Source: a virus
Taxonomy: Duplodnaviria > Caudoviricetes
Virus record (IMG/VR): IMGVR_UViG_2974668079_000001
Coordinates: 1 to 64,000 of that record
Length of the DNA: 64,000 nucleotides
Direction: 5' to 3' (one strand)
Shown here: positions 1 through 58,096 of the stretch, piece by piece
Layout: every line of letters begins with the position of its first letter
Position numbering within the stretch: the stretch's first letter is position 1
Program-made: the position numbers and the translations under genes
Notes under the pieces: generated by a model
What the model was told of the DNA's origin: nothing
The model's database searches: none
What the model saw: the letters and a program-made list of their open reading frames with translations, nothing else

Positions 1-63
1 AAGCCCCACCCCGTCTGGGCTGGGACTCCATCGGAGTGCCGGACGGATTTTGTCTGCCACGTG

Positions 64-296
64 TTGGGGACCACGACCAACGACCATTTACTAATGGACC
101 TCGACCACGACCACCGGGACCATCGGACAATGACCGTTAGTAAATGGACCATTGGACCGGAGGGGTTTGTAAATTATCATGGGGGTGTCGTATAGTTCGT
201 GGACCAATTTTTTCCGGGACCAGTTTTGAAGTTTTTACTAAAACGGAGGACCAGATGACCAGACCGAAGAGGAGATTGATTGTAGTCGAGGACCGA
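64..296 (+). repeat. Cluster of short direct (G)GACC repeats
   Basis: 16 GACC copies counted by eye between 67 and 296, all on the + strand, irregular spacing, interleaved with three TTASTAA sites. Confidence 0.75.
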
Positions 297-959
297 TGCT
301 TCCGGGGACATGCCCCCATTCGAATTGTGCGGGGCTCTGCGAAGGCTTCCGTATGCTATCAATGTCATCGTATGCAAAGAAAGCACGCACGCATGGTAGC
401 ACGCTGCCACAACCCAAAGGACCCAAGGTACAAGAACTACGGAGGGCGCGGGATCAGCGTATGCCCAGAATGGCGTAACTCATTTACTAAATGGTATGAG
501 GACTTCGGCTACCTCGTAGATGGGAATGACCTGACTATGGACCGTAGGGATAACGATGGGGATTACGAGCCGGGGAATATGCGTGCAGCCACTACCCAAG
601 AGCAAAACCGCAACCAACGAAGAAGTGTTTTACTAACGTACGATGGGGAGACGCTGAATCAACAGGTGTGGGCAGATAGGTTCGGCTTTCATAAATCCAG
701 TATACAGCGACGCCTTGGTGGGAAGTACCGGAATGATATAGAATGGGTACTCTTTGGCGTACGCACTACTATTACTAAAACGGAGGTACTGATTACTAAG
801 GACAGGAAGCGGTTGAACTTGCGTGCTTGGTGTAGATCGCTGGGTTTCTCACTACGCACAGTAGAGGACCGGGTATACAAGTTCGGCTGGAGTTATGCGC
901 AGGCACTCGGCTTTGCCTCCCGGAAGGGAAAACTTAGACCACCGCGTACAAAGGATTAG
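255..959 (+). CDS. HNH endonuclease (phage homing-type) with C-terminal DNA-binding repeats
   Basis: RCHNPKDPRYKNYGGRGISVCPEW...TMDRRDNDGDYEPGNMRAATTQEQNRN is the typical phage HNH signature. GGAGGA RBS precedes ATG 255 (ORF track start 144 is probably too long). Confidence 0.85.
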   Translation: MTRPKRRLIVVEDRCFRGHAPIRIVRGSAKASVCYQCHRMQRKHARMVARCHNPKDPRYKNYGGRGISVCPEWRNSFTKWYEDFGYLVDGNDLTMDRRDNDGDYEPGNMRAATTQEQNRNQRRSVLLTYDGETLNQQVWADRFGFHKSSIQRRLGGKYRNDIEWVLFGVRTTITKTEVLITKDRKRLNLRAWCRSLGFSLRTVEDRVYKFGWSYAQALGFASRKGKLRPPRTKD

Positions 960-969
960 TAAATAATAG

Positions 970-998
970 TTGCAGTTAGTAACACTGTGGCATATACT
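970..998 (+). promoter_or_regulatory. Sigma70-type promoter
   Basis: TTGCAG-17 bp-TATACT, intergenic; spacer begins with TTAGTAA. Confidence 0.7.
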
Positions 999-1033
999 CT
1001 TTATACACCAACTAACTAAGAAGGATTAGTAAA

Positions 1034-1330
1034 ATGAAGGACTTCAATATGAGCGAGGAGCTTACTCGCGTACAGGCTGGCTGGTATGAGCAGTCTAAGG
1101 ACGCCGTGTACAACTTGAAGGATGTTACTAAAGCACTCACAGACGGCAAGTCGCTAAAGCATTGTAAGCGCATGGTGGAAGACATCCCCGGTATTGGTCT
1201 CTCCCAACGTACGCAGGAATATTTGCAGGTGGCTTTGAACTGTAAACGCATGGAGAACTTTAGTAAATGCTTGTTCAAGGCTTATCAAATTCAAACGCGT
1301 AATGCAGCAAGTCTGAAGAAGGACTCGTAG
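1034..1330 (+). CDS. Hypothetical protein, 98 aa
   Basis: ORF with AAGGA RBS downstream of promoter; no recognised motif. Confidence 0.7.
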   Translation: MKDFNMSEELTRVQAGWYEQSKDAVYNLKDVTKALTDGKSLKHCKRMVEDIPGIGLSQRTQEYLQVALNCKRMENFSKCLFKAYQIQTRNAASLKKDS

Positions 1331-1331
1331 A

Positions 1332-1556
1332 ATGGTTAAACCGACACACCGCACACTGGTAGTAACTTCTAAGGGTCGTGTACCCTACGATGAGAAGCAT
1401 TACTACCACACTGGCAAAAAGGGAGAGGATGTTACGTTAGTAAACGAGCGTAACTTCAAAACGGTACAGGGACAGCGATTCGACCTTGTACTTTTCGTTG
1501 GCAACATATCTGGGGAAGTTCGTACGAAGTTCGCTGGGTTGGTTGGAGATTACTAA
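1332..1556 (+). CDS. Hypothetical protein, 74 aa
   Basis: Tightly packed ORF between neighbours. Confidence 0.6.
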   Translation: MVKPTHRTLVVTSKGRVPYDEKHYYHTGKKGEDVTLVNERNFKTVQGQRFDLVLFVGNISGEVRTKFAGLVGDY

Positions 1557-1557
1557 A

Positions 1558-2226
1558 ATGAAACGCAAGTACTTCGACGAAGCTTTACCATCGTTCTTTG
1601 TGTTCGGGGAGCACACTAACGGTACGGTGGACCTATCGTGCGGTGAGTTTGATGTTGTAACATACTGCCCTACAGAAATGGCAGAAGCCGCCATAGCTTA
1701 CTACGACAGCCTGCTGCTTAAGCTGCATGAGTGGGTAGTCGATCAGGAGAAACCCTCGGAAGCCCTCGACAAACTCTGTGACGCTTTCCAAGATGTTCAC
1801 GCGGGGCATCATTACATTGGCGACTTCGGGGCTGTAATGTTACTAAAACTGCTGTGGGAAGCGTACACCAAGATAGCGACAATCGTCCATCCGAGATTCT
1901 TACGTAGCGTGTACGGTGTAGAGTGGACCCCATCACTGGTGCAGGCGAACTTACTAACGCAACGTGGGTACACCCCTTACTGTGGTGGTCGTGACTGCAA
2001 GTCGGTCCCTCGAACAGCGTTCCGGGAGGAGCAGTTCCGCTGCCCTAGCTGCGGTTGGGAGTCGAACTTTGACCCTGAGTTCATTGCTGGGTACAAGTAC
2101 GTGTGGGACTTGCCGGGAGTTGACTGCGAGATGCTAGACGAGTTCCGTGCAATACTACCACTATCACTACACTTCGTAATGGTAGACGCGGACATGCGAT
2201 ACGCGGGGCGCATTGATGATGAGTAG
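1558..2226 (+). CDS. Hypothetical protein with Cys4 zinc-ribbon-like domain
   Basis: GYTPYCGGRDC...FRCPSCGW motif; GGAG RBS before ATG 1558. Confidence 0.7.
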   Translation: MKRKYFDEALPSFFVFGEHTNGTVDLSCGEFDVVTYCPTEMAEAAIAYYDSLLLKLHEWVVDQEKPSEALDKLCDAFQDVHAGHHYIGDFGAVMLLKLLWEAYTKIATIVHPRFLRSVYGVEWTPSLVQANLLTQRGYTPYCGGRDCKSVPRTAFREEQFRCPSCGWESNFDPEFIAGYKYVWDLPGVDCEMLDEFRAILPLSLHFVMVDADMRYAGRIDDE

Positions 2227-2413
2227 GAAGCGTTTACCTTTAGTAAAACGTGCAAGCGTACATTGGGCTCAGCTCACCGGGATTGTCGTAATGGACCCGG
2301 ATGGATGGGACCGCCAGAACTTCGAATACAGCTGGTATGAAGAGACCATTACCATTCTGGAGTTCTGGGATCGCGTGTACAACTCAACAACACTCATGAA
2401 ATTGGAGAATTAG
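2213..2413 (+). CDS. Hypothetical protein, 66 aa
   Basis: Fills the gap between adjacent + strand genes. Confidence 0.5.
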   Translation: MMMSRKRLPLVKRASVHWAQLTGIVVMDPDGWDRQNFEYSWYEETITILEFWDRVYNSTTLMKLEN

Positions 2414-2417
2414 TAAA

Positions 2418-2945
2418 ATGGCAAATACTATCGACCTACGCGGTAACGAACAGAGCGTTACCCGTGAAGATGCGGAAGCGTATGCAGCAGCTTTGGGATG
2501 CACTGCAATGTACTTCGGGTTCGACCCAGAGCCTAAAGACGTGGACCCGGCTATGGCTGTAAAGTTCGGACCGGGAAACCCATTCTTTACTAAGGATATG
2601 GAGAAGTTCTTGGGACCGGATGGGAGTCAGTTCTTTTACAACACGGCGATGTATCAATGCCGTAAGACGTGGAGCCTTCGTGCTTACCACGGAGCACGCA
2701 GCGTGGAGAAGCTTCTTGTTAATCTTAGTAAGGGTTCTCCGCTATCGGTTATGGCAGCATACGTTGACTGCACGCGTATGCTAGGTCTGTGTGAGGAAGC
2801 CCAGATGAGTGTATTCATAGCACGCCAGCTTTGCATCTGCAATCGTGACCGTAAGCACGTGGAAGAATGCTTACTGAAAGCACAGGAGCACCAGATGTCG
2901 TACATCGAACACCTAAAAGCGAAAGCTTCCTTGATGGAGGATTAG
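2418..2945 (+). CDS. Hypothetical protein, 175 aa
   Basis: GGAG RBS plus TTAGTAAA before ATG. Confidence 0.75.
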   Translation: MANTIDLRGNEQSVTREDAEAYAAALGCTAMYFGFDPEPKDVDPAMAVKFGPGNPFFTKDMEKFLGPDGSQFFYNTAMYQCRKTWSLRAYHGARSVEKLLVNLSKGSPLSVMAAYVDCTRMLGLCEEAQMSVFIARQLCICNRDRKHVEECLLKAQEHQMSYIEHLKAKASLMED

Positions 2946-2949
2946 TAAA

Positions 2950-3330
2950 ATGGAAAGTTCATTTGGTTGGAACCGTGTATTACTCGTAGGCGGGACAAAC
3001 GCGGGCACGTTCATGGGCGTGCTTCGTGACCAGCAGGTGATACGTATGGAGAAGAAAGACCCCAACGTACAACGCCTTGGAACACACGTCCTACAACGTG
3101 AGCAAGCCCCGGATGAAACATTCGATACCGAGGAGTACGTAGCCACAGACCACGCCTTACGAGGGACTACGATCTTTGTACTGCGAGGAATGGCTGGTGC
3201 AGACATCCCCTGCGAGATGTTGAAGATCATCGCTAAGCTGGATAGTAAGATTGGTGAGCTAAATTCTAGGATGGAGCTTGCTAATATAGCCGCGATGAAC
3301 GTTGCTCACTACGTGAAGAGAGACCAATAA
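2950..3330 (+). CDS. Hypothetical protein, 126 aa
   Basis: GGAGGA RBS plus TTAGTAAA before ATG. Confidence 0.75.
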   Translation: MESSFGWNRVLLVGGTNAGTFMGVLRDQQVIRMEKKDPNVQRLGTHVLQREQAPDETFDTEEYVATDHALRGTTIFVLRGMAGADIPCEMLKIIAKLDSKIGELNSRMELANIAAMNVAHYVKRDQ

Positions 3331-3331
3331 T

Positions 3332-3607
3332 ATGCGTATGACCACTATAGCGTGTGCGGTTAAGATACACTACCGTGTCCCGGTATTGCCGGAGATGCCG
3401 ATCCTTATCGGGAATACCAGAGCATTCGTGCAGGGTCGTGCTGCTGGTATTGGGTTTAGTAACCGCGTCCACTACGACGTGCCCATGCCCAAGTTCGTAC
3501 GCTCAGCTGCTACGCAAGCATTCGGACGCCTTGACCGCGAGTTTAAGGAAGCCACAATAGACCTTACGGATTATCAACATGCTTGGCTGGAGGTGAGCCC
3601 CAAATGA
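3332..3607 (+). CDS. Hypothetical protein, 91 aa
   Basis: Adjacent ORF, operon packing. Confidence 0.6.
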   Translation: MRMTTIACAVKIHYRVPVLPEMPILIGNTRAFVQGRAAGIGFSNRVHYDVPMPKFVRSAATQAFGRLDREFKEATIDLTDYQHAWLEVSPK

Positions 3608-3951
3608 GCGTAGAAGCTGTTTTCGAGCAGGACATGCAGTTAGACCCTGATATACGCAATAGCAACGTTGCAGGGGCTTTCTGCGTGGCTAAAGCGAACC
3701 TTTGCAACGCCTGCCAGTGGGACGGTACTATCGACGCTGCTATGATGGTCCTGTTGTTCACGGGCGTTACTAATTTCGACGACGACCTGATAAAGCGTTC
3801 TGTCGAGCTGGGCTACTTTAGCATCAAACTCATGGGTATGGTTGATCCTATCCGTGTAAACCGGGGCGATGTGCTCGTCCGATCATCTACGAGTTTCGTG
3901 GTGGTAACTAACGAAGAGTACAATCGCATTTTTACTAATATACTGTTATAG
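3604..3951 (+). CDS. Hypothetical protein, ~115 aa
   Basis: GGAGGTG RBS; ATGA overlap with previous stop. Confidence 0.65.
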   Translation: MSVEAVFEQDMQLDPDIRNSNVAGAFCVAKANLCNACQWDGTIDAAMMVLLFTGVTNFDDDLIKRSVELGYFSIKLMGMVDPIRVNRGDVLVRSSTSFVVVTNEEYNRIFTNILL

Positions 3952-3960
3952 GAGGACGCT

Positions 3961-4260
3961 ATGGCTCCCTTCTTCGTTTTCGCACAAACAGCAAACGTGA
4001 TGGTTAATACCTGCCGTCGTATGGGCATCTCACCGACGGAACCACGCCTTATCCGTGAACCGGAGAACTTAAAGGGCGTGAGTTTCCCTAAAGAGGGTGG
4101 TAAGTACATCATCTTCGTCTGTGGTGAGACTGTTCCACTCTGGCTCCACCAATTTGCTGTGCTGAACAACGTATTGCTGCTGGGCATGGACAAGCACGTG
4201 ATCGAGTACTACCGTAAGCAGGACTTCCGCGTGAATGACTACAACGCTTACGAACAATAG
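3961..4260 (+). CDS. Hypothetical protein, 99 aa
   Basis: AGGAGG RBS. Confidence 0.7.
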   Translation: MAPFFVFAQTANVMVNTCRRMGISPTEPRLIREPENLKGVSFPKEGGKYIIFVCGETVPLWLHQFAVLNNVLLLGMDKHVIEYYRKQDFRVNDYNAYEQ

Positions 4261-4311
4261 ACCGTATAGTTTACTGCAACATCCATTTTACTAAAATTAA
4301 AGGAGCTGAAA

Positions 4312-4815
4312 ATGGACTCACGTTACACCTTTATCGACCTAGTCAAAGACGTATTCGCAGCACTTAAACGTGCTAAAACCAACGGTGTTACTTTCAAAGG
4401 TCAATCTCCGTCAGCTGTAGCGGCTGACATGGCTAAGTACGACGCTGACCTAGAGAATGCCCCGGTAGAAGACTTGGAGAAGGCTGTGGGGCTTGTGCAG
4501 AGCATTGACGGCACGTTTAAGTCAGGTATCGAAGAGAAGCTTGACTCAATCCTAACACCCTCTGCGGTGATCATGGATTGTGACTTCGACGACATCCTAG
4601 AAGATACCGAAGTGGCTTACTGCGTCGATGCAAACCTAGACCTGCTGACGGTTGGTGCGTACAATGCCAAGGGCGGTTGCTGCGAGTGCTGTCGCCCTTA
4701 CTACCGTGAATCCGTCTACCTACTACGCGCTATCTGTATGCGTACTGGTGACGACATTACTAAAACTGTTCTGGACCGCAAAGCGGCTAAGAACCAAGTT
4801 GGAGACAAGCAATAA
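4312..4815 (+). CDS. Hypothetical protein, 167 aa
   Basis: AAGGAG RBS; CCECC motif near the C-terminus. Confidence 0.75.
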   Translation: MDSRYTFIDLVKDVFAALKRAKTNGVTFKGQSPSAVAADMAKYDADLENAPVEDLEKAVGLVQSIDGTFKSGIEEKLDSILTPSAVIMDCDFDDILEDTEVAYCVDANLDLLTVGAYNAKGGCCECCRPYYRESVYLLRAICMRTGDDITKTVLDRKAAKNQVGDKQ

Positions 4816-5597
4816 TGCAAGTACCAGTCAACATCACAGGTCCAGTGGGATCACTTGCCCTAGAATACATCGGCGGTAACGCTGATAAGGTGATTGAGTT
4901 CGTTAAGAACTGCACCGGGAACACGCCGACGTTTAAAGAGCCGGATGTGTTGGAGTACCCAGTTATCGGTGGTACGCAGCTGATCACCGTTGGCAGTTGG
5001 TTGGTGTGGGATACCACTAAACTGCACTGCATGGATGAAGTTTACTTTAGCAAGAACTTCACGATCATCTGGGAACATCCACAGCAGCCTGTCCCGGTGG
5101 ACGAGCCAGAAGGTCGTGCAATAGGCTCATACGCGATCAACCACTCGACTATCGCTGAAGACTTGGACTTCTACCACCACAACGAGTTTGGCACGCGTAA
5201 GGTACGCTGTATCAAGTCGAACTACGGTGCTGAAGGTCATCCAATCTACGGCTTACTAACTCTAGTTTGGCTAGACGGTGATGTGGCTATGTCGATGCCT
5301 GTTGGTGAGTTGGGAGACACAGACGAGTTCTCAATGGATTACCTCGGCGCGGTAGAAGCTGCTAAGCAGGGACATCGCGTGTGTCGTAAGGGTTGGAACG
5401 GCGCTGACATGTGCCTAGTGTACGTACCAGCGGCAGACATCCCAACGAAGGGAACAGGTCTTACCCCGTTCTTCGGTGATACCATGCCTATGCGTGCTCA
5501 CTGGTTACTAAAAACCGCCACAGGCGATGTAGCCAGCTGGTCCCCATCGACGTCGGATAGTCTAGCGACGGACTGGGAAATCTACTCACCAGAATAA
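4815..5597 (+). CDS. Multidomain protein with C-terminal DUF2829 / Tad2-like domain
   Basis: C-terminal MDYLGAVEAAKQGHRVCRKGWNG...LKTATGDVASWSPSTSDSLATDWEI matches the DUF2829 (Tad2 family) pattern. The N-terminal domain is paralogous to the next three genes. Confidence 0.8.
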   Translation: MQVPVNITGPVGSLALEYIGGNADKVIEFVKNCTGNTPTFKEPDVLEYPVIGGTQLITVGSWLVWDTTKLHCMDEVYFSKNFTIIWEHPQQPVPVDEPEGRAIGSYAINHSTIAEDLDFYHHNEFGTRKVRCIKSNYGAEGHPIYGLLTLVWLDGDVAMSMPVGELGDTDEFSMDYLGAVEAAKQGHRVCRKGWNGADMCLVYVPAADIPTKGTGLTPFFGDTMPMRAHWLLKTATGDVASWSPSTSDSLATDWEIYSPE

Positions 5598-5612
5598 TTT
5601 TACTAAAATGTA

Positions 5613-5641
5613 TTGACTATAAGAAACAGGGGGAATATACT
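5613..5641 (+). promoter_or_regulatory. Sigma70-type promoter with inverted repeat around the -10 box
   Basis: TTGACT-17 bp-TATACT; AACAGGGGGAA-TATAC-TTCTCCCTGTT (10/11 inverted repeat). Confidence 0.75.
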
Positions 5642-5684
5642 TCTCCCTGTTGTCGTTTTTACTAAACCAAAAAAGGAGTCCAAC

Positions 5685-6299
5685 ATGGATAACGTTATGC
5701 CACACCCTATGCCAATCACTTACCGCCGTCCTGAGAAACAGCGCCACGCGGTACAGCTTACTAAGAACAACGTGGGAACGGTAATCCAAGCCTTAGTCCA
5801 CCTTGATGTTCTGGAAAACCTAGTAATGGGCGAGGAGACTACCGATCCGGGCTTTGGTCGCCGCGAACGTGTCACTAAACCCTGCATCACATTCACCCCT
5901 AAGAAGGCGTTTTACAAGCAGTTCCCGGACCGCTACAACAGTATCGACGATGGTGAGGTAGCGATCTTTGAAGACGAGTACCTAGTCTTATTTGGTAACG
6001 GTGATTTCCAAGTCATGTCGGCACAAGAGTTTGAAGCCACTTACAAGTGGGGTCAGGACGAGCCTGCGCCGCTATCACCGTGTGCGGCTCCAGCGCAAGA
6101 TGACTTAGCGTCTATTGCCGGGGACCGCGAGTTCTCTGAGCCTCGTGTAGCTGCGCTGGAGCCAGAGGTGGCTATTGCTGTGGAAGAGGAGATGGAAGAC
6201 CTTGCCGAGCCCATTGAAGAGCCAGAAGAGTACGGCATCGAAGAGCGAGAGGAGTCTCCTCGTGCAAAGCGTATGGCTAAGCGTAATCGTCGTGACTAG
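5685..6299 (+). CDS. Paralog-array protein 2 with acidic then Arg-rich C-terminal tail
   Basis: YRRPEKQRHAVQLTKNN...DEYLV...MSAQEFEATY domain; AGGAG RBS before ATG 5685. Confidence 0.7.
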   Translation: MDNVMPHPMPITYRRPEKQRHAVQLTKNNVGTVIQALVHLDVLENLVMGEETTDPGFGRRERVTKPCITFTPKKAFYKQFPDRYNSIDDGEVAIFEDEYLVLFGNGDFQVMSAQEFEATYKWGQDEPAPLSPCAAPAQDDLASIAGDREFSEPRVAALEPEVAIAVEEEMEDLAEPIEEPEEYGIEEREESPRAKRMAKRNRRD

Positions 6300-6344
6300 C
6301 ATTGCTAGTACGTTTTTACTAATCTAATAATCAGGAGAAGAGTT

Positions 6345-6917
6345 ATGGACTCTACTTTACTAACAGTAACACCGAACAAGCCCTTCCGTGCCGTGCAGTA
6401 CAACGGTAGTAACTGGGCGCAGGTACGTCAGTTTGCTGCTAAGTTTGCTAACGTAGAAATCGCGATGAACTTGAAAGCCGACAGCCCACTACTTGCGCAC
6501 CTTGGCACAGGCAATATACTCATCCCTAAAGGGAACTACGTAGTTGCTTGGGGCAAGTGGGACCTGCGCACGTATTCGCCGGAAGAGTTTACTAAAGTGT
6601 TTGCTGGCATTCCGTCAGGACGTGACCAACTACTTGAGGTCGAGATGGACAATGACCGTATCGTGATGTCTATTGGTGTGGAAGCTATGCGCATGAGCAT
6701 CGAGTCGGGTCAGGCAGACTTCAGCGTAGGCGGCGCAGTCCACGTTGCAGACGTAGACATCTTTGGGCACGAGCTGATCAGCTACTTGAAAGCTGAAGCT
6801 GAAGACGGTGGTACTCCAGTTCATCGCATGATCGATAGCGTAGCGTTGGAAGCACTAGAGCATGGTGCTCACGGTATCATCGAGTTGGACGAAGAAGACT
6901 TAGAGCGAGACATCTAA
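6345..6917 (+). CDS. Paralog-array protein 3, two-domain
   Basis: KPFRAVQYNGSN...GNYVV...YSPEEFTKVF domain plus an unrelated C-terminal domain. Confidence 0.7.
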   Translation: MDSTLLTVTPNKPFRAVQYNGSNWAQVRQFAAKFANVEIAMNLKADSPLLAHLGTGNILIPKGNYVVAWGKWDLRTYSPEEFTKVFAGIPSGRDQLLEVEMDNDRIVMSIGVEAMRMSIESGQADFSVGGAVHVADVDIFGHELISYLKAEAEDGGTPVHRMIDSVALEALEHGAHGIIELDEEDLERDI

Positions 6918-7405
6918 TGGGCGTAGTAACTGTACAGCGAACCAATCCGATCATCGCGCTCCAGTTCACCGGAGATAACCACGAAGAGGTGATCGAGTTC
7001 ATGAAGCAACGCGGTGGGACCACCGTAACGATGCGGTATGACAATTTACTAAAAATTGAATCCGACTGCTTCCTATCATGGACTATCCGTCAGGGTGATT
7101 GGATTATCCACGAGAAAGGGTCCGTGTGTGAGGTCATCTTCGGAGACTTCTTCCCGGATGCCTTCCGCGTTATCGAGAACGGACCGCTGTTTGGTAAGAA
7201 GGTGGTCATCTCCGGTACTTTCGGCAAGGTAACTCGCCACGCTGTAAAAGACCTCCTATCTGCTCGCGGAGCTAAGGTGTTCGGCAGTGTGAACAAGTTC
7301 ACCGACATATTGGTGTGTGGCAAGGACTCAGGCTCTAAGCTTACCAAGGCTAAAGAGCTGGGAATCCGAATCATCTACGAGTCGGAGATTCTGGAACTAC
7401 TCTAG
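6917..7405 (+). CDS. Paralog-array protein 4 fused to a LigA-type BRCT domain
   Basis: NPIIALQFTGDN...GDWII...FPDAF domain followed by LFGKKVVISGTF...GAKVFGSVNKFTDILVCGKDSGSKLTKAKELGIRII (BRCT of NAD-dependent ligase type). Confidence 0.8.
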   Translation: MGVVTVQRTNPIIALQFTGDNHEEVIEFMKQRGGTTVTMRYDNLLKIESDCFLSWTIRQGDWIIHEKGSVCEVIFGDFFPDAFRVIENGPLFGKKVVISGTFGKVTRHAVKDLLSARGAKVFGSVNKFTDILVCGKDSGSKLTKAKELGIRIIYESEILELL

Positions 7406-7416
7406 CACTTTTACTA

Positions 7417-7442
7417 AAAGCCTCCTAACGGGGGCTTTTTTG
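7417..7442 (+). terminator. Rho-independent terminator
   Basis: AAGCCTCC-TAAC-GGGGGCTT followed by a T run. Confidence 0.8.
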
Positions 7443-7453
7443 TGTCTGAAGCA

Positions 7454-7481
7454 TTGACATGTGAAACAGTGGGAGTATACT
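7454..7481 (+). promoter_or_regulatory. Sigma70-type promoter
   Basis: TTGACA-16 bp-TATACT. Confidence 0.7.
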
Positions 7482-7509
7482 TATTAGTAAAACCAACGAG
7501 GATTAACAA

Positions 7510-7992
7510 ATGCGTATTATCTGTAAAATGTTCGGTCACGACACTCCGTGGAAGACTCCCGCGAATGTAAGCCCTATGTGGACTCCTAAGCAAGTCTCCC
7601 AAGACATCCTATCCGGCGAAGTCCGCGTCATCGACCCAATCTATACCGGGTACATGTTCCAAGGCTACGAGGGCGTGTGCTCGCGCTGTGGTCATACTGT
7701 CCCGGTATATGCTGATAACGTGCCGATCATTGAGCCTAGCCTAGTGCCTACCGACGACGAAGAGCCACTGGACCTTAATCGTGAACACCGCCAGTTGTAC
7801 CTATTCTGGTGTGATGTTACTAAAAAGCACGCAGATGCACGCCTATACCTTACTGGTAAGCAGATAAAGTACCTATGGCGGTGTATCTACAAAATTACTA
7901 AAGACAATCATAACCTGAGTCCGACGGAGTCCGATACTTGTAACTCCATCGTGTTCTCATATTGGAGAGCTAAGAAGAGAGGTAACAAATGA
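7510..7992 (+). CDS. Hypothetical protein with N-terminal CKMFGH...CSRC zinc-binding motif
   Basis: The MRIICKMFGH start and CSRCGH resemble a common small phage zinc-binding domain. Confidence 0.65.
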   Translation: MRIICKMFGHDTPWKTPANVSPMWTPKQVSQDILSGEVRVIDPIYTGYMFQGYEGVCSRCGHTVPVYADNVPIIEPSLVPTDDEEPLDLNREHRQLYLFWCDVTKKHADARLYLTGKQIKYLWRCIYKITKDNHNLSPTESDTCNSIVFSYWRAKKRGNK

Positions 7993-8210
7993 AAAAGTTA
8001 ATACTGGTGTTAGCAATCACCACAATTGCCGGGTGTGCGTCCCCGGAACGTCTACACAATTTGAAGTGTGACCAGTGGGTGTACGAACAAGTTATGGAGC
8101 ATGGGGAGGACTACTTCGATGCCGTGAAAGAGTGTGGCTACAAAAAGATCCCTATGTCGGACCCACTAGACGGGGCGTATCGTGTCTACAGCGTTGGGGG
8201 TGGTTACTAA
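7989..8210 (+). CDS. Small lipoprotein
   Basis: MKKLILVLAITTIAG-C signal peptide with lipobox. Confidence 0.8.
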   Translation: MKKLILVLAITTIAGCASPERLHNLKCDQWVYEQVMEHGEDYFDAVKECGYKKIPMSDPLDGAYRVYSVGGGY

Positions 8211-35055: not shown

Positions 35056-35347
35056 AATCAATATGACTAAGATGCGCGAGTTTATCTTGCTCGCGCTATC
35101 CGTCGTGATAGCGTTAGCCGTAGTAGTGGGAATGGCAGACCCAATGGTATTCGGTTTACTATTAGTAAAAACTGCCAAGGCGGTAGTGGCACTGGTCGCG
35201 GTTCGAGTCGCAGTCCACTACTTGGATAAGGTAATCGGAGTCAACTTCCGAGAGCATGTGCGGGGGTGGGATGGTCAAGCAATGGCTATTTACATGGGTG
35301 CTCGCTTTATTGGTGCTGCCGTTCTCTTCGGCTGCATCTTTAGTTAG
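35033..35347 (+). CDS. Putative holin
   Basis: ~100 aa, three hydrophobic segments, next to the endolysin; start may be 35063. Confidence 0.65.
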   Translation: MANKQRGKINMTKMREFILLALSVVIALAVVVGMADPMVFGLLLVKTAKAVVALVAVRVAVHYLDKVIGVNFREHVRGWDGQAMAIYMGARFIGAAVLFGCIFS

Positions 35348-35861
35348 CAACACCCAGTACGACAAGTACATCTACAAGGCATGGGAAGAGTACGTACCAG
35401 AGACACAATGCTGGTTATGGCTGAAGGCGCAATACTACCAAGAGAGTTTGCTGGACCCGGAAGCTACTAGCCATGTGGGAGCGATGGGATTAGCTCAGAT
35501 CATGCCGGGAACGTGGATAGATGTTAGTAAGAAACTTAAGTTCAATCCGAGAGCATCACCGTACGACCCGAAGCTCTCTATCGAAGCCGGAGCGTTCTAC
35601 TTACGCTACCAGTGGTCACAGTGGAGAGCCAAGCGGACCTTTGAGGATAGAATCAGTTTAGCCTTTGCCGGATACAACGCTGGCTTAGGCAACATACTAA
35701 AAGCACAGCGCCTGTCAGGGGGTCGGGCAGACTGGAAGTCGATTAGTTACTTTCTACCGGAGGTCACGGGAGAGAACAGCAAAGAGACTATCCAATACGT
35801 TGAGCGTATCTTTCGCTGGAAAAAGCAACTGGACGAACGCCGAAGTTGTGCAGTTTACTAA
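35271..35861 (+). CDS. Endolysin, soluble lytic transglycosylase (SLT) family, with N-terminal signal peptide
   Basis: AQYYQES...GAMGLAQIMPGTW...AGYNAG...ETIQYV motifs; N-terminus MVKQWLFTWVLALLVLPFSSAA. Confidence 0.9.
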   Translation: MVKQWLFTWVLALLVLPFSSAASLVSNTQYDKYIYKAWEEYVPETQCWLWLKAQYYQESLLDPEATSHVGAMGLAQIMPGTWIDVSKKLKFNPRASPYDPKLSIEAGAFYLRYQWSQWRAKRTFEDRISLAFAGYNAGLGNILKAQRLSGGRADWKSISYFLPEVTGENSKETIQYVERIFRWKKQLDERRSCAVY

Positions 35862-55811: not shown

Positions 55812-56915
55812 ATGGCAGAGACAAGACGTAGACGTACTAAGGCAGCTGAGAAAGAAGAGGCTCCTAAGTCACGTTCACGCCGTACACGTTCCACGGAGGC
55901 TGAGAAGCCTAAAGAACGTGCTAACGCCTACTTTGTATCGACAGAGAAGGGAGTAGAAGGCTTCAGTACCGGGTGTTGTCTGTTTGACCAAGCCCTAGGT
56001 GGTATTGGGTGGGCTACCAAGCGTATCATCAACATAGTAGGCGATAAGTCCACAGGTAAGACCCTCCTCGCTATCGAGGGGATGATCAACTTCCATCGCA
56101 CGTTCATCGACCAAAACCCACGCATTATTTACAAAGAGTGTGAGTCTGCGTTCGATGAGCCATACGCAGAAGCTCTGGGCTTACCACTCGACGACATTGA
56201 GGTAGACGACGACCTTGATACCGTAGAAGACATGTACGAAGACATTGAGCGTATCGTACAAGAAGCAGAGCGGGACCCACGCCCTATCTTGTACATCGTG
56301 GACAGCTTAGATGGTCTTAGTGATAGAGCCGAGCAGGGTCGTAAGATTGACGAAGCCAGCTACGGGCAGGATAAAGCCAAGAAGTTATCAGAGTTCTTCC
56401 GCAAGAAGAAAAAGGTAATGGCTAAGGCTAACATTACTTTACTAATTATCAGCCAGATCCGTGATAATATCAACGCGGCTGCGTTCGGTAAGAAGTCTAA
56501 ACGCTCTGGTGGTAAGGCTTTGGACTTTTACTGTAGTCAAGTTGTGTGGCTAGCCAACTTAGGTAAAGTTACTAAAGCTGTTAAGGGCAAGAAGCGTATC
56601 GTTGGTGTTGACATCCGTGCAGCCATTGAGAAGAACAAGGTGGGCAACCCGTTCCGCACAGCTGACTACCCGATAATTTTTGGTTATGGGGTGGATGACA
56701 TCTACGCCTCTGTAGAGTGGCTACAGTCGAACGTAGGATGGGATGTTCTTGAGGACCTAGGATTCAAGAAGACAACCTACAAGGCTATGTGCGCTAAGAT
56801 CCGTGACAAGGGTGGTCCCGAAGCCAAGGAGATGCGTGAAGCTCTTAATAAGTTAGTAATCCACCACTGGCAGGACATCGAGCTAGACTTGATGCCTAAG
56901 ACTGGTAAGTATTAG
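55812..56915 (+). CDS. recA: RecA/UvsX recombinase with Arg-rich N-terminal extension
   Basis: GDKSTGKT, YIVDSL, IISQIRDNI, SGGKALDFYCS, KNKVGNPFR. Confidence 0.93.
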   Translation: MAETRRRRTKAAEKEEAPKSRSRRTRSTEAEKPKERANAYFVSTEKGVEGFSTGCCLFDQALGGIGWATKRIINIVGDKSTGKTLLAIEGMINFHRTFIDQNPRIIYKECESAFDEPYAEALGLPLDDIEVDDDLDTVEDMYEDIERIVQEAERDPRPILYIVDSLDGLSDRAEQGRKIDEASYGQDKAKKLSEFFRKKKKVMAKANITLLIISQIRDNINAAAFGKKSKRSGGKALDFYCSQVVWLANLGKVTKAVKGKKRIVGVDIRAAIEKNKVGNPFRTADYPIIFGYGVDDIYASVEWLQSNVGWDVLEDLGFKKTTYKAMCAKIRDKGGPEAKEMREALNKLVIHHWQDIELDLMPKTGKY

Positions 56916-56928
56916 TAAAGGAGGCAGT

Positions 56929-57456
56929 ATGCCTGTAATCCAAGCAGCCAGAAAACCCACTACGCTATCCTGCATTCGTTGGGAGGGTGATAACCTACGT
57001 GAAGTACTTGAGTTCACCGGGAAGCACTTTAAGTTTGACAAGTGGTTCGCCAGCTTCGAGGAGTACGAAGCCCATGTACGATCTGAGGGTAACATCTTCA
57101 AGGTATTCACCCGAAACGGTGTTACTGAAGCAGCCGTAGGTGATTACATTATCCGTGGGGTAGAGGGTGAGCACTATCCATGCAAACCAGACATCTTTGA
57201 CGAGATCTACGATACCAGTGGGCGTGTGTTTGTGCCTATGGCAGACGCTAGCACGCAGGAGTTAGCGGCGCGTCTGGAAAAATGCAAGGGGTACGAACCC
57301 TACATGCTTAACTGGATCTGCGTGTCGTACAAAGAGTGTGGTATTTCCCGCATCCCAGTCTACGAGTGCTACCACCCGGACCACACCGTGTTCTACGCAA
57401 GCTCAGAGTTGCAGCAGGCAGTAGACGCATTTAGTAACTACCCCTACCTAGGGTAG
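56929..57456 (+). CDS. Canonical member of the RKKP...GDYII...YPCKPDIF small phage domain family
   Basis: ARKPTTLSCIRWEGDN...AAVGDYIIRGVEGEHYPCKPDIFDEIY. Confidence 0.8.
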   Translation: MPVIQAARKPTTLSCIRWEGDNLREVLEFTGKHFKFDKWFASFEEYEAHVRSEGNIFKVFTRNGVTEAAVGDYIIRGVEGEHYPCKPDIFDEIYDTSGRVFVPMADASTQELAARLEKCKGYEPYMLNWICVSYKECGISRIPVYECYHPDHTVFYASSELQQAVDAFSNYPYLG

Positions 57457-57469
57457 TGCATCGTAACTA

Positions 57470-57490
57470 GGGGGCTTCGGTCCCCTTCTT
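57470..57490 (+). terminator. Possible Rho-independent terminator
   Basis: GGGGGC-TTCG-GTCCCC-TTCTT. Confidence 0.6.
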
Positions 57491-57505
57491 CAATTGGAGA
57501 CCAAT

Positions 57506-58096
57506 ATGATCAACGAAGACCTGTACATGGGGCTAGACTGCTCCCTCAACAACTCAGGCATAGTGGTCTTTGGTAAAACTACTGGATACATTTATGAAAG
57601 CATTAAGCCGAAGTGTAAGGGGTATGAGCGCCTTGCTTATATCCACGATAGTCTTACTAAAATACTCGCTAAATACCCAAACATCAAAGGCGCTAACATC
57701 GAGCGGTATGCCTACAACAAAGGTGGTAATGACAAGTCCAACGCCGGGATGGTATTTAACATCGGTGAAGGCGGTGGAGTCGTGCGACTGGCGTTATTTT
57801 CGGCTGGCATACCTGTCCTGCTCACTAGCCCAAACACTGGGAAGAAGTACGCAACTGGAAAGGGTGTTGGGGGCAAGGAGATAATTCTCAAGGAAGTGTA
57901 CAAACGCTTCGGTGAAGACCTCGACGACGACAACTTAGCCGATGCTTTGGTAATGGCTCGTATAGCTTACCACTGGTTCACAGACGACTACGAAGGACTT
58001 ACTAAGGCTCAGATAGAAGCGGTTAAAGCAGCCTCTCTTGAGCATGAGCCCCCTAAGCCTACTAGCCGTCGTAAACGGAGAGTAAAACGCAAATGA
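57506..58096 (+). CDS. ruvC: RuvC-like Holliday junction resolvase
   Basis: MGLDCSLNNSG, IERYAY, IGEGGGVVR, KKYATGKG, DDNLADA. Confidence 0.88.
   Translation: MINEDLYMGLDCSLNNSGIVVFGKTTGYIYESIKPKCKGYERLAYIHDSLTKILAKYPNIKGANIERYAYNKGGNDKSNAGMVFNIGEGGGVVRLALFSAGIPVLLTSPNTGKKYATGKGVGGKEIILKEVYKRFGEDLDDDNLADALVMARIAYHWFTDDYEGLTKAQIEAVKAASLEHEPPKPTSRRKRRVKRK

Follow-up and report, generated by a model that had tools for sequence, protein, structure and literature searches.

Four consecutive genes of a Vibrio phage, here called G1 to G4 (positions 4815-7405, + strand), begin with diverged copies of one N-terminal domain of about 85-125 amino acids, as profile comparisons of their sequences confirm, and a fifth gene, G5, carries the canonical copy. 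The genes lie in a stretch of 64,000 nucleotides (the window), positions 1 to 64,000 of the IMG/VR record IMGVR_UViG_2974668079_000001, which derives from a Mardecavirus (MAR10-like) Vibrio phage; whole-genome searches used the full phage record of 76,350 bp. We regard the array as a conserved early-gene cassette of Mardecavirus phages that probably arose by tandem duplication and domain shuffling. The initial annotation had seen in it a candidate modular anti-defence locus built on an Acb4-like domain. As a whole this proposal is plausible by association: a complete Tad2 domain in G1 and the fusion of relatives of the shared domain to five proven sponge families speak for it, and the Acb4 identity had to be given up. 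Our preferred reading, which we hold tentatively and rate somewhat short of an even chance, is that the shared domain counters defence as an autonomous binding module.

Profiles were used to establish the domain because pairwise BLAST connects only G1 with G4 (blastp, 38% identity over 45 amino acids, E 1e-5). A family hidden Markov model (HMM) was built from 118 of the best database relatives of the G5 copy, none of them from the source phage, and scanned over all 467 six-frame open reading frames (ORFs) of at least 50 amino acids in the window. The fifth canonical copy, which the initial annotation had placed at 56929, is real. G5 took the top rank with 145 bits, and ranks 2-5 fell to G4 (21.2 bits, E 6.8e-6), G3 (10.2 bits, E 0.018), G2 (7.1 bits, E 0.17) and G1 (6.7 bits, E 0.22), all five matches being colinear and at the N-terminus. 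Four named ORFs would take ranks 2-5 of 466 by chance about once in 2e9 trials. For G1 and G2, however, the margin over the next ORF (6.1 bits) is thin, and their membership needed further tests. Using hhalign with profiles made of orthologues from four phages, the G4 N-domain aligned with the family at P 4e-8 (probability 93%) and with those of G1 (P 3e-7, probability 88%) and G3 (P 1.4e-5). The remaining comparisons gave P values of 1e-4 (G1 with the family), 7e-4 (G3 with the family) and 8e-4 (G1 with G3), and unrelated partner segments handled likewise as a control gave P values of at least 0.025. An HMM made only from the orthologues of the G1, G3 and G4 N-domains retrieved G2 as its top outside match among the 467 ORFs (15.2 bits, E 5e-4). 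The same array-only HMM gave just 6.3 bits on G5. G1-G4 thus make up a separate, diverged subgroup, which is what duplication in place would produce. By these profile comparisons G1, G3 and G4 are well supported, and G2 is the weakest and least secure member.

Aligned jointly, 31 sequences share one invariant Asn, and four further columns (G, F, G and F) show conservation of 90% or more. All copies have this Asn; only G4 and G5 retain the Asp of the GD motif. Most of the family's polar motif (GD[WY]...GE.YPCKPDIF) is gone from the array copies, which keep the hydrophobic core pattern. Judged by a significant profile match over the whole domain together with the motifs WTGxN and GD[WY][IV][IV] of this unnamed family (phrog_1810/phrog_419 type), G5 and G4 belong to it, G1 and G3 are linked to it through G4, and G2 is marginal. 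A chance resemblance among unrelated small proteins would agree with a pairwise identity of about 20%, with single-sequence BLAST joining only G1 and G4, and with the E values near 0.2 at which the family profile alone leaves G1 and G2. We nevertheless consider it very improbable, since ranks 2-5 among 466 ORFs go to the four genes, the P values of several independent profile links lie between 1e-3 and 4e-8 against at least 0.025 in the control segments, the alignments are colinear across the full domain with its invariant Asn, and the model of G3 described below takes the strand and helix order of the family. The common N-terminal pattern that the initial annotation had reported for the four consecutive genes is thus upheld by the family-HMM ranks, hhalign and the array HMM.

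Each copy is fused to a different partner, and the partners proposed at the outset (Tad2, an acidic tail, a helical region and a BRCT domain) were recovered by Pfam, the Protein Data Bank (PDB) and composition, the helical part being modelled at low confidence. G1 (4815..5597, + strand, as are all the genes described here; 260 amino acids) has the shared domain at residues 1-95 (4815-5099), a middle segment at residues 96-172 that matched none of the families searched, and a complete Tad2 domain at residues 173-258 (5331-5588). The latter, with its profile match at residues 174-257, covers positions 1-73 of the 73 in PF11195 (DUF2829) with 67.2 bits, for a cut-off of 25, and aligns end to end with solved Tad2 proteins: PDB 9EIB (ModTad2) and 8V3E at E 4e-16 over 84 amino acids, and SPO1 Gp34.65 (8SME) at E 4e-9. 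The solved proteins are stand-alone and about 90 amino acids long, whereas in G1 a further 172 residues (the shared domain and the middle segment) precede Tad2.

G2 most likely starts at the ATG at 5685, as annotated in phage PVP21, and then spans 5685..6299 (204 amino acids); a start at the TTG at 5613 is unlikely because relatives annotate a 615-nucleotide coding sequence and because a terminator-like hairpin and a promoter-like site occupy 5613-5651. Its putative shared domain (residues ~10-125) bears an insertion of about 50 amino acids between the first helix and the beta-hairpins, and the C-terminal half of the domain matches phrog_419 at E 0.007-0.036. The last 80 residues of the protein include 24 Asp/Glu and finish with a basic C-terminus (RAKRMAKRNRRD). 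G3 (6345..6917, 190 amino acids) has the shared domain at residues 12-88 (6378-6608), followed by a C-terminal part that matches phrog_21508, phrog_14071 and phrog_15438, all of unknown function. AlphaFold2 draws these C-terminal ~100 residues as helical and unreliable, with a pLDDT score (predicted local distance difference test) of 30-50, and the ESM Atlas model is poor too (pLDDT 0.53).

The start of G4 (6917..7405, 162 amino acids) overlaps the stop of G3 by one base. Its shared domain at residues 1-88 (6917-7180) matches phrog_1810 at E 1.5e-6, and residues 90-162 (7184-7402) form a LigA-type BRCT domain (PF00533, 57.2 bits for a cut-off of 21.3), with the BRCT domain of Escherichia coli LigA (5TT5 and 2OWO) matching residues 88-162 at E 5e-14. 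G5 (56929..57456, 175 amino acids) consists of the canonical domain at residues 1-97 (56929-57219; phrog_419 E 8e-39, phrog_1810 E 3e-15) and an unassigned C-terminal part of 75 amino acids. We detected no relation of the G1 middle segment, the G2 insertion and the C-terminal parts of G3 and G5 to one another or to the N-domain. Relatives of these genes carry GenBank labels of methionyl-tRNA synthetase (G1), stringent starvation protein B or ATP-dependent RNA helicase (G2) and DNA ligase (G4). The first two sets have no backing in Pfam, NCBIfam or PDB; the third is wrong because G4 has no ligase catalytic domains, its resemblance to LigA models being confined to the C-terminal BRCT domain and scoring far short of the cut-offs of those models.

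The family to which the shared domain belongs is very large, phage-specific and uncharacterised, with Pfam PGDYG as a distant relative. With phmmer, residues 1-100 of G5 retrieved 9,050 representative clusters at E<=1e-3 from 1.84 billion representatives, and a single tblastn query matched 845 of 50,697 phage records (~1.7%), all of them labelled hypothetical. The relation to PGDYG (PF14083), itself an uncharacterised phage family, concerns the C-terminal half of the domain (GD[WY]II...YPCKPDIF), which aligns with the start of the profile; the N-terminal half, a strand and three helices with WTGxN, lies outside the PF14083 model. Close relatives reach 16.7-18.6 bits over profile positions 5-37 or 5-72 only, for a gathering score of 27 bits, and PF14083 has no match in G1-G5 nor in the whole genome. 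Literature searches on PGDYG and on WDGH, a domain met below, found nothing relevant. The gene neighbourhoods of two stand-alone members were uninformative (contigs of ~1.4 kb), and 10 neighbours of the SPO1L5 copy have no Pfam match. One relative of 3,743 amino acids (P0008) holds 19 PGDYG repeats, an annexin repeat and a C-terminal zeta-toxin/AAA_33 kinase-like domain; here the half of the phage domain with the hairpins serves as a repeat unit, in quite another setting.

From an alignment of residues 1-100 of G5 with 28 stand-alone relatives, AlphaFold2 predicted a fold of order b1-a1-a2-a3-b2-b3-b4-b5-a4 (pLDDT 91.3). The G3 model was built from G3 orthologues, the G1 and G4 N-domain paralogues and family members; in residues 12-88 (pLDDT 72-85) it shows b1-a1, a variable middle, four strands and a helix. 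Because family rows are part of its alignment, the model speaks for compatibility with the family fold and is not an independent test. The G3 and G5 N-domain models have at least 15 of their top 50 neighbours in the BFVD database in common. In BFVD, 39 viral proteins matched at E<=1e-3, from phages of Gordonia, Klebsiella, Erwinia, Enterococcus, Streptomyces and Arthrobacter and from a haloarchaeal virus. Foldseek matches labelled 'PGDYG protein' had E values of 1e-8 to 1e-5 and template-modelling (TM) scores of 0.53-0.67 by query, and the G3 model retrieved them too. Among solved structures no such match emerged: Foldseek against PDB gave a best E of 0.4 with the pLDDT-91 model, VIA-align, run on 48,161 representative chains, a top Z of 3.2 (hot-dog thioesterases), and sequence searches of PDB with G5 and with a 29-member family profile nothing credible. 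Weak rows for Tudor, Sm and chromo domains, none of them significant, suggest that the C-terminal half may form an SH3-like barrel.

The initial annotation had likened the domain to an Acb4-type anti-CBASS sponge, and this resemblance did not hold. PF13876, the Acb4 family, has no match in G1-G5 at E<=1 or in the whole phage genome at E<=10, and in hhalign comparisons with the Acb4 segments of four fusion proteins both the family and the array profiles stayed at probabilities <1%. Members of the Acb4 family bind 3'3'-cGAMP and related CBASS signals. Acb4 is a tetramer of 96-amino-acid chains of order a1-a3/b1-b3/a4-a5, whose three-stranded sheet is enclosed by helical regions (bioRxiv 10.1101/2024.12.30.630793), from which the predicted order b-a-a-a-b-b-b-b-a of our model appears to differ. 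Acb4 chains are not among the PDB fold matches, an absence that by itself does not exclude the family. What the two have in common is that both are small, phage-encoded and found in the same polypeptide in other phages, where they sit side by side as separate units; that the shared domain should itself be Acb4 (PDB 9E4W) seems scarcely credible on these data. Acb4 is rather a frequent fusion partner of the domain, and these fusions may explain why Acb4 was proposed. TadIV-1 (T4 vs.3) was also rejected as an identity, being helical and restricted to Straboviridae.

The association with sponges comes from the longer relatives of the domain. A profile search returned 2,474 of them at E<=1e-5, and among the 120 listed (at least 211 amino acids) that we examined for Pfam partners, 13 had a precomputed Pfam partner, in 7 of the 13 a proven sponge: Acb4 in four, Tad2 plus Sequestin in one, the Acb2/Tad1 hairpin in one and PF26760 in one. 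The others were the dATP/dGTP pyrophosphohydrolase PF04447 (three) and DUF551 (three), for which our literature search led only to the C-terminal domain of lambda Ea22. All partner calls were confirmed by hmmscan, and the PF26760 protein is Lockin, as it matches the solved PDB 9P8L at E 2e-33. Five experimentally proven sponge families, namely Acb4, Tad2, Sequestin, Acb2/Tad1 and Lockin, are therefore found fused behind the shared domain. As an example, two metagenomic proteins, one with Acb4 (P0227) and one with Tad2 and Sequestin (P0221), have N-domains that are 91% identical, which means that cargo was exchanged recently behind a constant N-domain. The fused copies retain the full motif GDWIIKGVxGExYPCKPDIF, which argues for an activity of the domain itself. 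Structural neighbours of the G5 domain in the ESM Atlas (TM 0.72-0.80) include clusters that join this fold to Sequestin (332 members), the Acb2/Tad1 hairpin (55 members), WDGH (91 members) and DUF551 (54 members), the Sequestin and Acb2/Tad1 clusters being neighbours at TM 0.72-0.74. WDGH (PF25311) is another uncharacterised domain, and its 91-member cluster is of phage origin.

Fusions of this kind have a precedent. Sequestin was found through its fusions to Tad2 and Acb4, and multi-domain proteins joining Tad2 to Acb4, Sequestin to Tad2 and Sequestin to Acb4 have been described (Tal et al., bioRxiv 10.1101/2025.07.12.664507); our reading follows the same guilt-by-fusion logic. G1 resembles these proteins in joining a complete Tad2 to other small modules, and the relatives of its N-domain do so in being fused to Acb4, Tad2 plus Sequestin, Acb2/Tad1 and Lockin. 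It differs from them in that the recurring module has neither a Pfam model nor a known function and recurs in four genes side by side; in three of these the partner is not a known sponge. Sequestin (PF21825) shares the habit of fusing to sponges, but is an alpha-helical dimer of 60-80 amino acids with proven binding of 3' cyclic ADP-ribose (3'cADPR), whereas the shared domain is predicted to be alpha/beta, measures about 95 amino acids and is a candidate only.

The four proteins each join a diverged copy of the N-domain to a different module (Tad2, acidic tail, helical region or LigA-type BRCT). In the mechanism that we propose, the Tad2 of G1 would soak up Thoeris and related nucleotide signals, an activity established for the family, whose tetramers sequester gcADPR, His-ADPR or cyclic nucleotides, and presumed for G1. 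The shared domain would likewise counter host defence, its target being either a signal derived from nucleotides or an immune protein of the host. In that case the array would provide four inhibitors, each bifunctional and of diverged specificity, and G2-G4 may have an anti-defence role as well. We favour an autonomous module because stand-alone members are frequent and because invariant polar positions are kept in canonical and fused copies: among the top 149 relatives, an unbiased set, 36 (24%) are stand-alone proteins of about 95 amino acids, and canonical members have invariant G, N, D, K and D positions of the kind typical of a binding or active site.

Nearly as likely as a counter-defence module, and in itself a doubtful but serious possibility, is a generic adaptor. 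The domain would attach to a structure common in the host or the phage, or act as a module for stabilisation or assembly, and so lend one property to its cargo; the four genes would be host-takeover proteins with unrelated jobs, and only G1 an immune-signal sponge. The domain is N-terminal with a C-terminal partner in 77 (52%) of the top 149 relatives, internal in 25 and C-terminal in only 11 (7%), and its cargo is hypervariable, 233 partner segments falling into 147 clusters. Cargo is swapped behind near-identical N-domains, G4 has a DNA-ligase-type BRCT, G5 stands between recA-like and RuvC-like genes, and the array copies lack the polar motif yet keep the hydrophobic core pattern. An adaptor would also be compatible with sponges that are dimeric, tetrameric or hexameric. 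It leaves unexplained the quarter of members that stand alone without cargo, canonical members keep the invariant positions, typical of a binding or active site, that are named above, and many sponges function without such an adaptor.

Several observations weigh against an autonomous counter-defence module. Its mostly N-terminal position and the extreme diversity of its partners, NTP pyrophosphohydrolases and DUF551 among them, would suit a generic adaptor no less well. The mixed oligomeric states of the sponges to which it is fused (dimer, tetramer and hexamer) are awkward for a sponge with its positively charged ligand pockets between protomers, as immune-signal sponges in general have them, and any canonical activity may have been lost in G1-G4, as most of the conserved polar motif is missing there. 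The count of sponge fusions comes from the 120 listed of 2,474 relatives, without a matched control. In the source phage, Tad2 is the only Pfam-defined sponge family present of those tested, the whole genome having no match to the Acb4, Sequestin and Acb2/Tad1 hairpin profiles (nor to WDGH). G5 is located in a recombination module and not in the early accessory region: its neighbours (window 55812-58096, + strand) are a RecA-family recombinase (PF00154, E 4e-32) and a weak RuvC-like match below cut-off (PF02075, E 6e-4). Finally, our literature search found no paper on the family.

The setting of G5 within a recombination module would also suit a third explanation, that the domain is a nucleotide-handling module, enzymatic or regulatory, of phage nucleotide or DNA metabolism, with the link to sponges being secondary. 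Fusions to the dATP/dGTP pyrophosphohydrolase (PF04447, three cases) and to MazG, BFVD neighbours labelled NTP-PPase or nucleotide pyrophosphohydrolase, a match to phrog_4159 and the conserved polar motif of canonical members all point this way. We find it unlikely, since the fold matches no known nucleotide-binding or catalytic domain (the best Foldseek E of 0.4 and VIA Z of 3.2 given above), sponge partners outnumber pyrophosphohydrolase partners (7 vs 3 among the 120 listed), and the array sits in the early region among small orphan genes.

A bolder form of the counter-defence reading, which we hold to be rather improbable though less so than nucleotide handling, is that the domain constitutes an eighth family of phage immune-signal sponges, or a helper that shields sponges from sponge-sensing systems (Panoptes). 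The array would then be a natural set of four specificities that have diverged and are each linked to another inhibitor module, with the BRCT domain, acidic tail and helical region as new anti-defence parts. A review of October 2026 counts seven experimentally characterised sponge families, and the shared domain is not among them (PMC13712596); if this form is true, the lack of a Pfam model would be the reason why the family escaped notice. The domain shows a Sequestin-like signature of fusion to five sponge families, yet neither a matching solved structure nor a description of it was found, and with its 9,050 representative clusters it is far commoner than any known sponge family. A role in counter-defence would thus give a function to a large share of the 'hypothetical' early genes of phages; were it only an adaptor, it would still mark the cargo domains as candidate host-takeover functions. 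The source phage would offer four natural variants and a canonical copy for comparison.

The array is conserved throughout the genus. The stretch 4300-7500 has 94-99% identity with about 30 Mardecavirus Vibrio phages, including KF6, ValLY_3, VVP001 and PVP21, and 60-80% identity with a remoter group that includes vB_VpaS_MAR10. The divergent MAR10 (261, 211, 190 and 163 amino acids) and KF4 have the array gene for gene, with 57-82% protein identity to the window copies. G3 is present in 37 phage records (coverage of at least 80%). A scan of IMG/VR found one locus only, and word-indexed homologue searches with the G4 N-domain and the G3 C-terminal part returned orthologues only. G1-G4 are located in a left-end block of small rightward genes, nearly all labelled hypothetical, and are probably transcribed early. 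None of 10 ORFs flanking the array (9 upstream within 1-4300 and one downstream at 7989-8210) has a Pfam match at E<=0.1; the early region consists of orphan genes almost throughout.

Consensus scans alone indicate a terminator-like hairpin after G1 (5625-5651, + strand; 11-bp stem and T run) and a promoter-like site ahead of G2 (5613-5641, + strand; TTGACT-17-TATACT). As this site overlaps the hairpin between the two genes, the array may be divided into separate transcription units. The same scans place a second terminator-like hairpin at the end of the array (7416-7439, + strand; 10-bp stem and T run) and a near-consensus promoter for the next gene (7454-7481, + strand; TTGACA-16-TATACT, 11/12).

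Other places in the window were considered as further copies of the domain. The ORFs at 3961-4260, 4312-4815 and 7510-7992 are not copies, and the match at 35235-35858 comes from a short motif that arose by chance. An ORF of 115 amino acids (3604-3951, + strand), located two genes upstream of the array, is a possible sixth and very diverged copy: its domain-like part is C-terminal (VLLFTGVTN ... GDVLV ... EEYNRIF), its HMM scores are at noise level (E 1-2), and hhalign aligns it with the family at P 1e-3 over 64 columns.

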